This document shows positions 37,775 to 40,199 of a stretch of DNA of 64,000 bases, piece by piece. Below the pieces are notes generated by a model. That model made no database searches. It worked only from the letters and a program-made list of their open reading frames with translations, and was not told where the DNA came from. Source of the stretch: a virus; the IMG/VR virus record IMGVR_UViG_3300045988_119573, positions 82,089 through 146,088 of that record; one strand, 5' to 3'. Both the position numbers and the translations under genes were made by a program. The first letter of the stretch is position 1. Every line of letters starts with the position of its first letter.

Positions 37775-37872
37775 GTTTTTGTTATTTTTTTTTATAATTG
37801 CCAAACACATTCGATAAATCAAGGGTAAATGTGTTGGTTTTGTACCTATGTTATTTTTTATAGTTGTCAAAC
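37775..37872 (-). CRISPR. Mini-CRISPR array 1: degenerate 32-nt repeat, 30-nt spacer, 36-nt repeat variant A'
   Basis: GTTTTTGTTATTTTTTTTTATAATTGCCAAAC | acattcgataaatcaagggtaaatgtgttg | GTTTTGTACCTATGTTATTTTTTATAGTTGTCAAAC. Strand not established; assigned here to match cas12f. Confidence 0.6.
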
Positions 37873-38013
37873 ATCAAATAACATAAATCCGACAATATAA
37901 CATAGATTTTAGTGAGTGCTATAGTAAGCCTCACTTTTGGCGTACTCAATATTATTTGAGCAGAATATTTTATATACTCCCAAAACACACCAAATATTTT
38001 AAAATTTTATTAA
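37873..38013 (-). ncRNA. tracrRNA-like module 1 (anti-repeat + conserved hairpin + CCCAAAACACACC motif)
   Basis: GACAATATAACATAG is complementary to repeat A' (CTATGTTAT...TTGTC); hairpin AGTGAG-N13-CTCACT followed by TTTTGG; motif CCCAAAACACACCAAATATTTTAA. Confidence 0.4.
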
Positions 38014-38183
38014 GTTTATGATGTAAAATTAATTAGGCATCAAACTACATTTTTGCATTTTTTCTTTAATTGCTTCTGCCGTTTTGTACCTATGTAAAAT
38101 TAATTAGGTATCAAACAAAGCATTAGCAGAAGAAAGAGGCTTGCACAGTTTTGTACCTATGTAAAATTAATTAGGTATCAAAC
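38014..38183 (-). CRISPR. Mini-CRISPR array 2: truncated repeat, 35-nt spacer, repeat A, 31-nt spacer, repeat A
   Basis: Two identical 36-nt repeats GTTTTGTACCTATGTAAAATTAATTAGGTATCAAAC (38081..38116, 38148..38183) plus a truncated copy ...ATGTAAAATTAATTAGGCATCAAAC; spacers tacatttttgcattttttctttaattgcttctgcc and aaagcattagcagaagaaagaggcttgcaca. Confidence 0.7.
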
Positions 38184-38318
38184 CTCAAATTCTTTTGTCC
38201 AATTTTGTTACCTAATTTACATAGATTTTAGTGAGTACCTTACGATCTCACTTTTGGCATAGCCACAACTCTGTGACCAGAAATTTTAATTGGAATAAAA
38301 TTTCCCAAAACATGCCAT
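38184..38318 (-). ncRNA. tracrRNA-like module 2
   Basis: TTACCTAATTTACATAG is complementary to repeat A (CTATGTAAA[ATTAA]TTAGGTAA: 16/17 pairing with a 5-nt bulge); hairpin AGTGAG-N11-CTCACT plus TTTTGG; degenerate CCCAAAACA motif. Confidence 0.45.
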
Positions 38319-38420
38319 GTATTTTATTTGTGTAATTTTTTATGGTTCTCAAACACCCATGCACTGGATCAGCGAGCCAAGATCGTTTTGTATTTGTGTA
38401 ATTTTTTATGGTTCTCAAAC
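38319..38420 (-). CRISPR. Mini-CRISPR array 3: repeat B', 30-nt spacer, repeat B
   Basis: GTATTTTATTTGTGTAATTTTTTATGGTTCTCAAAC | acccatgcactggatcagcgagccaagatc | GTTTTGTATTTGTGTAATTTTTTATGGTTCTCAAAC. Confidence 0.65.
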
Positions 38421-38567
38421 CTCAAATCTTAATTATGTATACAATACAAAACTTTACGTTCTGCTTCATTACACAAATTTTAGTGAGTGATTTCTCCTCA
38501 CTTTTGGCGTAACCATTTTATTTATGGCTGAGGGAGTACCGAACTCCCCCCAAAACACACCAAATAT
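38421..38567 (-). ncRNA. tracrRNA-like module 3 (its 3' part overlaps the cas12f stop codon)
   Basis: CATTACACAAAT is complementary to repeat B (ATTTGTGTAAT; 11-13 nt); hairpin AGTGAG-N9-CTCACT plus TTTTGG; extra GGGAG-TACCGAA-CTCCC hairpin; motif CCCCAAAACACACCAAATATTTAA ends at the cas12f TAA. Confidence 0.4.
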
Positions 38568-40199
38568 TTAAGCAGTTTTTTTATTATCATTATTTTTATC
38601 ATCTTCTAATACAATTCCATAATAATCTGCCGCAGCTTGAATCGTTTCTTCTGAACATTTAAATTTATCGTCTGTAAATTGTGTTGACATTGCGATGTTT
38701 CTAGCCGCATTGTAATCTGCATTTACAGTATATAGCTTGTGACTTTTACAATTAGGGTTCTTACATTTAAATGTTGCCTGATCTTTTCTTTGTCCTTTCT
38801 CCCAGTGCCCACAAAAACTACACACTTGAGATGTAAATGATGGATTGATTTTTCTAACTATGATCCCACATTGTTCTGCTTTATATGTAATATATTGCTG
38901 TAGTTTATAAAAGCTCCAATTTCTTAAAACAAATTCACTTGAATCATACCCTTTTAAATTTTCTATGTTGATATATTTTGCTCTATGTTTGATTGCATAA
39001 TCAACAACTTTTTTACTAACTCGATGACAATATGTATCAACAAAATTGTTTTCTTTTTCTTTTAGCCTTTCTAAAGCTAATAATTTTCTTTTTCTTCCAT
39101 GTCCACCTTTTGCTAATTTTAAAGCTTTTTGTAACTGCGTATATTCATTTTGAAATTTTGTTCTTTTTGAAACAAGATCATTCCCACTTCCAATATATTG
39201 TTTATCATATTCGTTATTATTTAAAGCACACACAGCAGGAACAGCAAGTCCCAAGTCAACTCCAACAACAGTATTTTCATCTAAATCCATTTTTTGTTTT
39301 TTCATTGTTATGCTTAAGTTCATTTCTATTTTATTATCATCAATACCAAATGTACTTCCGCCAACTGAATACTCCCCTGTGAAAATCTTAATAATTGTTG
39401 AAATTAATTCTGCCTTATTCTTGTTTTGTTTATGTCCAAAATTAATCTTGAATTTAGCAATTGTTGGAAGACCATTACCGCCCAAGCACACATACACTGG
39501 GTATGTAGACTTACCAATATTCTTTTTTAATTCTGTTATATCTTTGCAATCTGTAAAAATACCAAAACTCTTATTACTTAAAGTAAAAGGAGAATCGAAT
39601 TTGTAATTTGGGACAGAAACTTTTCCTTTCAATACTCCATCTTTAATTAAATTCTTAATTTTGCTTGTAAGCGCTTGTTTAAACTCAAAACCGTATCCCA
39701 TCAACGGATTACTAATATCAACGTCTGTAAAAATACTTCCATTTTTATTACCCGCTTTACGATAACATTTGTTAACATTGGCACTCACCCATTTATTCTT
39801 TTCTGTAAGAGTCGGTAAATTCGCTACTTCGTCCTGTACCATTTTTGTATATATGTATGACATAATGTAATTCTTTCGCCTTGCTTCACTTTCCATCGCA
39901 TCTCTCACAAGACCATATGTATAATCATTAACCATTTTCTGAGTGTATTCTTTCATTCCATTTTCTTTGAACTCTTCATATTGCTTTTCTAATTCTGCAA
40001 GCTGCTGTTTATACCCATCTTTCTTTTCTGGTTTACTTGTGTTCTTAATCTGTTTCTTCTTTGCTTCAATTTTCCTTGGAAAATCTTTTTCTAAGAAAGC
40101 ATCAATTCTTTTCTTCCACTCTTTTCGCTCGCTTGCAACAGGAATTAACGTGATTTTCCTTGCAATTGTCATTGTGTTATCGTCTTGTTTCTTAGCCAT
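38568..40199 (-). CDS. cas12f: Cas12f-like (type V-F / TnpB-family) RuvC nuclease, 543 aa
   Basis: RuvC-I VVGVDLGLAVPAVCALNNNE, RuvC-II YINIENLKG, Zn finger CSFCGHW...FKCKNPNCKSH, RuvC-III NADYNAARNIA. Segments resemble Un1Cas12f1 (GGIDVGVKSPLVCAINN; AGHGAKNKL vs GGHGRKRKL; CSKCGH...FKCEKCNF...NADYNAALNI). Adjacent to the arrays. Confidence 0.75.
   Translation of the reverse strand: MAKKQDDNTMTIARKITLIPVASERKEWKKRIDAFLEKDFPRKIEAKKKQIKNTSKPEKKDGYKQQLAELEKQYEEFKENGMKEYTQKMVNDYTYGLVRDAMESEARRKNYIMSYIYTKMVQDEVANLPTLTEKNKWVSANVNKCYRKAGNKNGSIFTDVDISNPLMGYGFEFKQALTSKIKNLIKDGVLKGKVSVPNYKFDSPFTLSNKSFGIFTDCKDITELKKNIGKSTYPVYVCLGGNGLPTIAKFKINFGHKQNKNKAELISTIIKIFTGEYSVGGSTFGIDDNKIEMNLSITMKKQKMDLDENTVVGVDLGLAVPAVCALNNNEYDKQYIGSGNDLVSKRTKFQNEYTQLQKALKLAKGGHGRKRKLLALERLKEKENNFVDTYCHRVSKKVVDYAIKHRAKYINIENLKGYDSSEFVLRNWSFYKLQQYITYKAEQCGIIVRKINPSFTSQVCSFCGHWEKGQRKDQATFKCKNPNCKSHKLYTVNADYNAARNIAMSTQFTDDKFKCSEETIQAAADYYGIVLEDDKNNDNKKTA

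Follow-up and report, generated by a model that had tools for sequence, protein, structure and literature searches.

The subject of this analysis is a 64,000-nucleotide (nt) stretch of viral DNA (IMG/VR record IMGVR_UViG_3300045988_119573, positions 82,089 to 146,088; hereafter "the window") and, within it, a minus-strand locus in which a gene for a predicted miniature nuclease, Cas12f, is accompanied by short palindromic repeats that are clustered and regularly interspaced (CRISPR). Along the minus strand, cas12f is followed by three tandem modules, each made of an element resembling a trans-activating CRISPR RNA (tracrRNA) and a mini-array with one or two spacers (Table 1). All three mini-arrays lie no more than 800 nt downstream of the effector gene, giving the adjoining CRISPR array expected of a type V-F1 locus. 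An initial annotation, made by a model from the sequence, had placed the locus at 37775-40199; the locus is real, and its true extent is 37771-40199, 4 bases beyond the limit then given. That annotation also described three short arrays of 36-nt repeats with unique spacers and a degenerate distal repeat. We find exactly this: seven repeats, grouped 2+3+2, are separated by spacers of 30, 31, 35 and 30 nt, and in each array the terminal repeat at the minus-strand 3′ end is degenerate. The repeat quoted at the time, GTTTTG...CAAAC, exists as well, in the form of the reverse complement; the predicted transcribed sense is that of the minus strand, GTTTGA...ACAAAAC.

Table 1. Features of the cas12f locus (positions in the window).
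Feature	Position	Strand	Evidence or component parts
cas12f gene, predicted 543-aa Cas12f1-type (former V-U3) effector	38568..40199	-	open reading frame, profiles, PDB sequence matches, AF2 model and Foldseek
tracrRNA-like element 3, gene-proximal	38421..38567 (approximate boundaries)	-	three-copy alignment, fold, covariation, nhmmer E = 8e-26
mini-array 3	38319..38420	-	repeat 38385-38420; S3 38355-38384 (30 nt); degenerate terminal repeat 38319-38354
tracrRNA-like element 2, end motif ATTTGAG	38184..38318	-	inverted repeats, cognate duplex, fold z = -5.82
mini-array 2 repeats	38148-38183, 38081-38116, degenerate 38010-38045	-	array span 38010..38183
mini-array 2 spacers	S2a 38117-38147 (31 nt), S2b 38046-38080 (35 nt)	-	
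tracrRNA-like element 1, distal, end motif ATTTGAT	37873..38009	-	cognate duplex, fold z = -4.92
mini-array 1	37771..37872	-	repeat 37837-37872; S1 37807-37836 (30 nt); degenerate terminal repeat 37771-37806

The 543-amino acid (aa) product of the gene carries the RuvC motifs VVGVDLG (D315), INIENL (E413) and NADYNAARN (D495), a GGHGRKRKL motif and a zinc ribbon, CSFC...CKNPNC (C460, C463, C479, C484). In an alignment of 35 sequences, comprising the protein and 34 homologues 46-91% identical to it, the catalytic and zinc-binding residues are invariant or nearly so, which bears out the intact RuvC-I/II/III triad and the TnpB/Cas12 zinc finger first reported for this protein. Its size falls in the range of type V-F1 effectors (about 400-700 aa), as does its plan, with a split RuvC D-E-D site and a Zn-ribbon TNB domain in the C-terminal part. 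Pfam matches are to Cas12f1-like_TNB (1.5e-17) and OrfB_IS605, the sole NCBIfam match above cut-off is to the generic guided_TnpB subfamily, and the public annotation of the protein reads only "IS605 OrfB family transposase". The PADLOC profiles Cas12u3 (3.8e-94) and Cas12f (4.5e-91) match it almost end to end. In a sequence comparison against the PDB (Cas12f names taken from PMC13186708 and the Foldseek listing), the best matches are CnCas12f1 (8HR5, 8e-59) and Al3Cas12f (9NZO/9NZR, 9e-59), followed by RhCas12f and then by AsCas12f, SpCas12f1 and OsCas12f; Un1Cas12f1 (5e-25), phage Cas12p (9JFS, 3e-5) and ISDra2 TnpB (1e-3) score more weakly.

An AlphaFold (AF2) model built from the 35-sequence alignment (mean predicted local distance difference test score, 85) displays an enlarged, helical N-terminal half with long REC helices. 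When the model was compared with the PDB by Foldseek, the top 22 matches were all Cas12f chains (5e-26), with TnpB at ~1e-11 and Cas-lambda at ~2e-7. Profile, PDB and Foldseek scores thus all put sequence and fold nearer to Cas12f than to TnpB or other Cas12 subtypes. Judged from sequence and modelled fold, it is an effector of Cas12f1 type, from the former V-U3 group, and not a transposon TnpB. The initial annotation had reached the Cas12f-like identity, which stands; it had seen the closest resemblance in Un1Cas12f1, a place that belongs to CnCas12f1 and Al3Cas12f (~1e-59 versus 5e-25). It had also recommended a profile and sequence comparison for telling TnpB from Cas12f: Cas12f scores far better, and the grouping with TnpB named as contrary evidence was not seen in these comparisons.

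The three stretches of ~135-147 nt that precede the arrays proved, on alignment of the three copies, to be paralogues of one another, and nhmmer found only these three in the window. They have in common their start, ...UUGGUGUGUUUUGGG, and a block of the form CGCCAAAAGUGAG-loop-CUCACUAAAAU, followed by a segment complementary to the repeat of the next array. Element 3 begins right after the cas12f stop codon, is composed of a P1 helix, GUUUUG, stems 1, 2 and 3 and an anti-repeat, and ends in the leader motif ATTTGAG. No matching family was found in an Rfam scan of positions 37000-41000. This tri-modular tracrRNA/array architecture is absent from the initial annotation; by these sequence comparisons, the stretches between the arrays are structured and not filler. 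Folding each tracrRNA together with the first repeat of its module, separately for each module, yielded z scores of -5.83 (module 3), -5.82 (module 2) and -4.92 (module 1). The predicted fold is common to all three: P1, unpaired GUUUUG, two variable hairpins and a GUGAG/CUCAC hairpin and, in the 3′ part, a long anti-repeat:repeat helix and an unpaired ACAAAAC tail directly before the spacer. Duplex energies computed with RNAduplex point to cognate pairing in module 2 (-20.5 kcal/mol with its own repeat versus about -11 with the other two) and in module 1 (-16.3 kcal/mol versus -10 to -12); these two modules are predicted to be orthogonal.

The same arrangement recurs in related phages. Seven IMG/VR viral contigs (44-169 kb) carry the same protein at 91-100% identity, and the exact protein is present on 24 public contigs, the longest of 180 kb. 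In the seven sister phage loci in IMG/VR, cas12f is followed by three modules in conserved order, and the same 55-aa gene closes the locus; flanking genes are unchanged in sister phages (69-100% identity). The number of spacers per array varies from 1 to 3 among the sister loci, repeat and anti-repeat drift jointly, and the five loci that have diverged further (91-94% protein identity) have entirely different spacers. At least two modules can be counted in a relative of 69% identity, up to the end of its contig. Among four relatives of ~50% identity (contigs of 44-234 kb), three have two or three modules and one has a single module; their repeat sequences differ and some of their arrays lie upstream of the gene. 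Judging from these loci, possession of several cognate tracrRNA/array cassettes per effector is a family trait. No description of this layout was found in the searchable literature, which is not proof of its being unpublished.

Covariation was analysed on 20 distinct module sequences drawn from the window, the sister phages and the 69%-identical relative. For this set, the RNAalifold consensus contains P1, the base of stem 1, stem 3 and the anti-repeat:repeat helix, with compensatory changes in 9 pairs, 4 of them in the anti-repeat:repeat helix; by an explicit pair count, the same four helices are 92-100% paired. The covariation score, 0.292, compares with 0.143 in shuffled sequences (none of 500 shuffles reaching 0.292) and with at most 0.087 when the partner segment is slid out of register. 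The shuffle control overstates the significance, because the module sequences are related, and the slid control is the more reliable of the two. A tracrRNA-like element with a co-varying anti-repeat thus lies between effector gene and array, as in type V-F1 loci. The segments GUUUUG and CAAAAC are complementary, invariant and unpaired in all three module folds. Since Cas12 tracrRNAs engage the repeat's AAAC end in a pseudoknot (10.1101/2025.01.20.633832), a similar contact may be proposed here.

Some additional features of the elements deserve mention. The predicted minus-strand tracrRNAs would start near (A)UUUGGUGUGUUUUGG, and a candidate TAAAAT box lies 6-7 nt before each of them. Ahead of tracrRNA 2, the box is produced by the terminal repeat of array 3, which ends in AAATAAAATAC and not AAATACAAAAC, a change conserved in all sister phages; the corresponding boxes are TTTTAAAAT before tracrRNA 1 and TAAATA, overlapping the cas12f stop codon (38560-38575), before tracrRNA 3. 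Each tracrRNA may have its own promoter. Module 3 contains an insertion of ~25 nt (38440-38470) that includes GUUUUGUAUU, the complement of the final 10 nt of the module's repeat, and that would be expected to rival the proposed pseudoknot. In L002 and L005, two of the sister phages, this segment has a mutated form (GUUCCG), for which reason it is maybe a remnant. Two isolated elements were noted in relatives: a tracrRNA-plus-array module with no adjoining cas12f on a short Oscillospiraceae contig from a metagenome-assembled genome (L019, JAUNJJ010000335.1, positions 1000-1260), and a solitary tracrRNA-like element within a tRNA gene cluster, ~2 kb upstream of cas12f, on a 233-kb contig (L010, GCA_003556005.1, positions 3790-3900). 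The cassettes might be mobile, or might work from a distance.

The protospacer of S2a was identified outside any array when metagenomes were scanned with the first 22 nt of this spacer; it matches over 31/31 positions in four contigs and 28/31 in two more. The target is the SprT-like gene of a ~12.8-kb element. Three of the target contigs (L030 = PPYF01621623.1, L031 and L032), each 12.9 kb long, have terminal direct overlaps of 79, 127 and 55 nt and are mutually rotated, from which we conclude that the element is a circle of about 12.8 kb. It is AT-rich like the phage (34% G+C) and, besides the SprT-like gene, encodes ParA, a toxin-like PBECR2 nuclease, an HNH endonuclease, a serine resolvase and a DnaD/helix-turn-helix-type Rep with 22-bp iterons upstream (L030 3551-3633); an open reading frame (ORF) for a radical-SAM protein (8980-10107) is weakly similar to prokaryotic viperins (pVip; 4.9e-10). 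Distant relatives of the Rep are found on plasmids of Clostridioides, Clostridium and Bacillus. Neither PLSDB nor INPHARED contains a nucleotide match to the element, and its proteins show no similarity to those of the phage. It could be a defence-carrying or phage-parasitic plasmid.

Spacers of sister phages converge on the same element. At least seven of them match it at sites other than that of S2a: L005_S2a (30/30), an extra spacer of L033 (30/31), L006_S1 (29/31), L004_S1 (27/32), L002_S1b (26/30), L002_S1a (25/29) and L003_S2 (17/18), with two weaker matches at 23/31 and 22/30. The L003 spacer, in array 2, is only 18 nt long. Sister locus L006 shows two irregularities. Its array 3 has a 62-nt "spacer", probably arisen by repeat loss, and its module 2 and module 1 spacers (7080-7111 and 7323-7353) have their last 13-14 nt in common, both are followed by aberrant terminal repeats, and both map to one target site (L030 12436-12467); the shared ends could reflect either a hot spot from which spacers were acquired twice or recombination of one module with the other. 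Other searches returned nothing beyond the arrays. The four window spacers (S3, S1, S2a, S2b; five scans) and the module-3 spacers of L002 and L004 matched only the arrays themselves in IMG/VR, S3 had zero matches in species genomes and JGI metagenomes, and no match was obtained in INPHARED with 24 concatenated spacers or, by megablast, with the whole locus. No spacer matches the window or the fetched flanks, which speaks against self-targeting. The initial annotation had suggested a role in inter-phage competition or host takeover; the sole identified target, a plasmid-like circular element, is neither phage nor host chromosome.

The eight strong protospacers have, in the minus-strand sense, the 5-base upstream flanks TTCGA (S2a), ATAAG, ATTAT, YTCAT, TTCGC, ATTAC, ATTAC and TTCGT (the extra spacer of L033); those of the two weaker ones are ATGAC and ATTGT. 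All sites (8/8 strong and 2/2 weak) have T at -4 and a purine at -2, defining a 5′ T-(Y)-R-N flank. The chance of finding T at -4 alone in 8/8 is 1.4e-4, which a generous correction for multiple tests raises to about 0.03. No motif is apparent in the downstream (3′) flank. A T-containing protospacer-adjacent motif (PAM) on the 5′ side is the rule for Cas12, and the published Cas12f PAMs include T-rich motifs (TTTR, NTTY, DTTR/ATTA) and the C-rich CCN of CnCas12f1. The double-stranded DNA protospacers therefore carry a 5′ PAM-like flank of the kind type V-F1 calls for, read from a small sample. The position of this flank also sets the orientation, repeat handle then guide, with transcription in the same direction as cas12f. 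Transcription from the plus strand had been raised by a TTTT on the other flank of the first protospacer; it was rejected in view of the 5′-only motif of the eight protospacers, and it also disagrees with the placement of the degenerate repeats and the architecture of the tracrRNA.

One sister contig informs on how spacers are gained. In L033 (211 kb), array 2 is longer by one repeat-spacer unit, placed at its tracrRNA-proximal end before S2a and S2b. Integrase-mediated adaptation is marked by such polarised addition on the leader side, and the fact that this extra spacer is directed against the same element suggests that spacers are still being acquired. The leader-repeat junction reads ATTTGAG/GTTT in modules 3 and 2 and ATTTGAT/GTTT in module 1; of 11 arrays in distant relatives, 10 have TTGAG (mostly TTTGAG) at this point, in a sequence context that is otherwise different. 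Spacers of about 30 nt, the modal length here, fit type II-A arrays. The Group-1 signature of type II-A arrays (leader end ATTTGAG/GTTT, 36-nt repeat, 5′ GTTT and 3′ AAAC) is present in the locus, and ten leader nucleotides plus one repeat are enough for integration in Group-1 systems (PMC5382924); type II-A cas genes were not found in the window. Adaptation in trans has reported precedents in type VI-B using type II-C machinery (PMC8092290) and in plasmid-borne type IV-A3 (10.1101/2023.06.23.546257). We tentatively propose, as a possibility at somewhat less than even odds, that the phage arrays are loaded in trans by type II-A machinery of the host. Two points argue the other way: no Cas9-type 3′ flank motif is visible at the protospacers, and the phage may carry an integrase of its own elsewhere in its genome.

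Taken together, these data are best explained by a phage-encoded CRISPR-Cas12f interference system of type V-F1 (V-U3-like), a reading to which we assign a probability of roughly 0.8. Once expressed and processed, each tracrRNA would fold into the closing helix P1, three stem-loops and a 3′ anti-repeat, the latter pairing with nucleotides ~2-29 of the 36-nt repeat of its own module. A pseudoknot would probably arise between the last six repeat nucleotides (CAAAAC) and GUUUUG, which is invariant and lies close to the tracrRNA 5′ end. Loaded with the pair of tracrRNA and CRISPR RNA (5′ repeat handle, 3′ guide), Cas12f, presumably dimeric, would recognise the 5′ T-(Y)-R-N PAM and cut DNA with its intact RuvC site. 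The biological role would be to remove, in the course of infection, a mobile element that competes with the phage or inhibits it, similar to the action of phage ICP1 against the PLE island of its host, with spacers turning over by polarised insertion at the tracrRNA/leader-proximal end. That the system may be functional, as the initial annotation supposed, is supported by protospacers sharing a consistent 5′ PAM-like flank. In line with that annotation, no cas1, cas2 or cas4 was found among the 88 minus-strand ORFs of the 64-kb window (PADLOC; Pfam, best 25 families), nor, on related contigs, in ~10 kb and 3.5 kb beyond the window ends. V-U3 loci usually lack these genes, unlike Cas14a-type loci, and an effector gene with no other cas genes, as seen here, is usual among them, so that the locus fits the V-U3-like subgroup. 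With no adaptation integrase genes in the window, adaptation is probably supplied in trans. By sequence, the locus has every computationally testable attribute of V-F1/V-U3 systems except an adaptation module, and lacks those of a TnpB transposon.

Several observations weigh against this interpretation. Expression and cleavage are predictions from the sequence. The module 3 duplex, at -12 kcal/mol, displays no preference for its own repeat, and the anti-repeat match there extends over 11 bp. The candidate GUUUUG/CAAAAC pseudoknot has no covariation support and, because both segments are invariant, is proposed from their complementarity. A simple scan of the minus strand of the modules, which we judge uninformative, revealed no sigma-70-like promoter and no terminators. 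A gap of one base separates the PAM-like motif from the protospacer, and the motif is drawn from some ten sites. The spacer search recommended in the initial annotation gave a target for S2a and none for the other three window spacers (S3, S2b and S1), and none of six module-3 spacers examined matches the 12.8-kb element, module 3 being the only one of the three modules for which no such match was obtained. Finally, the cas1/cas2 scan covered the window plus about 13 kb, and ~110 kb of the phage genome lies outside.

Could the mini-arrays serve an effector of the host, such as a type II-A Cas9, whether or not the phage Cas12f also uses them? The type II-A Group-1 signature and the spacer length just described would fit such arrays. 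Virus mini-arrays that exploit host CRISPR systems are known (PMC11656645). Here, however, the phage itself carries the cognate effector, and each array comes with its own phage-encoded tracrRNA that co-varies with the repeat. The architecture of this RNA is of the Cas12 type, with the anti-repeat at the 3′ side and a 5′ GUUUUG facing the AAAAC end of the repeat; the conserved protospacer flank is on the 5′ side, as for Cas12, with none at 3′; and arrays and cas12f are linked in every relative examined except the short contig L019. A search of 185,579 species genomes with a degenerate repeat pattern produced five single matches, one of them a phage fragment, and no host arrays. We therefore consider service to a host effector quite improbable. 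A purely regulatory or decoy function is rated lower still, as very unlikely: Cas12f would then repress transcription of phage or host genes, or the repeats would act as RNA anti-CRISPRs titrating host Cas proteins. Regulatory mini-arrays occur widely in cas loci (10.1101/2023.03.03.530964), exapted Cas12f homologues reportedly control transcription (PMC13472631), and repeat units acting as RNA anti-CRISPRs occur in viruses (PMC11656645). Such functions accord poorly with catalytic residues that are intact and conserved, with full-length perfect or near-perfect spacer matches to a foreign element next to a PAM-like flank, and with spacer turnover between sister phages, which fits an arms race; moreover, no partial self-matches near promoters were found in the window.

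The Pfam OrfB_IS605 and NCBIfam guided_TnpB matches, together with the public "IS605 OrfB family transposase" label, might be taken to mean that a transposon-type TnpB (IS200/IS605) landed in the phage and that the repeats are transposon-end or omega-RNA-related sequence. This is the least credible of the alternatives, to the point of being extremely unlikely. Cas12f and Cas12u3 profiles fit far better and over almost the full length, and solved TnpBs are distant in sequence (1e-3) and in fold (1e-11 versus 5e-26 for Cas12f). TnpA was not detected in the window (PADLOC; Pfam, best 25 families; IS ends were not searched with a dedicated model), and in place of a single guide there are repeat-spacer arrays, whose variable spacers lie between true repeats and match foreign DNA. 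The locus is syntenic, and the presence of the same flanking genes in the sister phages gives no sign of mobility.

The Cas12f interference system favoured here can be set beside several known ones. Bacterial V-F1/former V-U3 systems (CnCas12f1, 8HR5; Al3Cas12f, 9NZO/9NZR; AsCas12f, 7WJU/8J12; SpCas12f1; OsCas12f; RhCas12f) share its effector family and fold, the placement of the tracrRNA between effector gene and array, and a 5′ PAM within the known Cas12f range. They have one tracrRNA and one array, whereas the phage locus has three diverged, co-varying modules (1-3 in relatives), resides in a phage of ~160-180 kb, encodes a longer N-terminal half and is associated with a PAM-like motif offset by one base. 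In viruses, CasPhi (Cas12j) and Cas-lambda of huge phages are likewise single-effector type V systems with short arrays and no adaptation module; they are not known to need a tracrRNA. A single type V effector, short arrays and the lack of an adaptation module also mark Cas12p "hacker", the Cas12f-like proteins of oral huge phages (PMC12297358) and Cas12r of Thermus phages. Such virus-borne compact systems presumably serve inter-element conflict. The present effector differs from CasPhi, Cas-lambda, Cas12p and Cas12r in belonging to another clade (3e-5 to Cas12p in sequence, ~2e-7 to Cas-lambda in fold) and in its predicted dependence on a tracrRNA. For the other compact type V systems of phages, no published account was found of multiple cognate tracrRNA/array modules or of a plasmid-like target.

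Vibrio phage ICP1 offers the closest functional parallel in its type I-F system: a lytic-type phage with spacers against one small mobile element resident in its host, their content varying between isolates (PMC11656645). ICP1, though, has a complete class 1 system with its own Cas1 and Cas2/3, unlike the class 2 miniature effector with no adaptation genes in view described here, and an anti-phage activity of the 12.8-kb element is hinted at only by the weak pVip-like radical-SAM gene. The arrays resemble those of type II-A (Group 1 leader, as in S. thermophilus CRISPR1) in the ATTTGAG abutting a 36-nt repeat that starts with GTTT and ends with AAAC, and depart from them in that cas9, csn2, cas1 and cas2 are missing from the window and that the tracrRNA architecture and PAM side are Cas12-like. 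As reported for the trans-adapting type VI-B and IV-A3 systems, an effector-plus-array locus with no integrase gains spacers; the borrowing suggested here by sequence signatures would extend from phage genome to host and from type V to type II-A.

The initial annotation knew of no described phage Cas12f-type system with this architecture. To call phage Cas12f-type systems undescribed is too strong: the Cas12f-like proteins of oral huge phages (PMC12297358) and Cas12p are already published, so that the effector finding alone joins a known kind. On sequence evidence, three features appear to go beyond it: the modular arrangement of tracrRNAs and arrays, a plasmid-like target on which spacers converge, and a leader that resembles those of type II-A. 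With eight spacers (one from the window and seven from sister phages, plus two weaker) converging on one element, the locus provides a concrete, testable case of what a phage miniature CRISPR system is for, and, within class 2, an equivalent of the conflict between ICP1 and PLE, its setting apparently being communities of the human-gut type. The co-varying cassettes would represent a natural set of orthogonal scaffolds from which multiplexed guides for a single compact Cas12f could be designed, with a PAM already readable from natural targets. The type II-A-like junction, for its part, opens to experiment the question of spacer supply in phage and V-U systems devoid of adaptation genes. A more ambitious scheme, which as a whole we regard as doubtful, would combine these elements into a hybrid: Cas12f with its own tracrRNAs, arrays written by the host type II-A Cas1-Cas2-Csn2, and diverged cassettes exchangeable between phages, all devoted to destroying one ~12.8-kb plasmid family, itself maybe anti-phage or phage-parasitic.

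The surroundings of the locus are those of a large phage, in agreement with the setting proposed from the outset. The window is almost wholly coding on the minus strand (90 ORFs, 92% coverage; G+C, 32-35%), and its large ORFs match PHROG families for NAD-dependent ligase, RecD/Dda-like helicase, DNA polymerase, RecJ and DnaB. With these replication genes and the seven IMG/VR viral contigs in hand, the window is, by sequence comparison, DNA of a phage of ~160-180 kb. Sample labels such as ZEEV15 suggest human-gut studies behind the related contigs. No tRNA genes were found in the window. Two small ORFs (61 and 93 aa; 40202-40674) lie directly upstream of cas12f and might have an accessory function in the CRISPR system; ORFs of matching size precede the 69%-identical homologue (L013, L014). 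Matches to the Thoeris anti-defence Tad2-like domain (best 8e-28) come from three window ORFs; 36678-36962 and 36971-37282, which lie immediately downstream of the CRISPR locus, are probably among them, and the locus may lie in an anti-defence neighbourhood. Three separate ORFs give matches to NrdD, the anaerobic ribonucleotide reductase, and there are homing endonucleases of the LAGLIDADG/HNH kinds, a pattern suggestive of one gene interrupted by mobile introns or inteins; further products encoded in the window are a PemK/MazF-like toxin, two Bro-N proteins and a tyrosine integrase.

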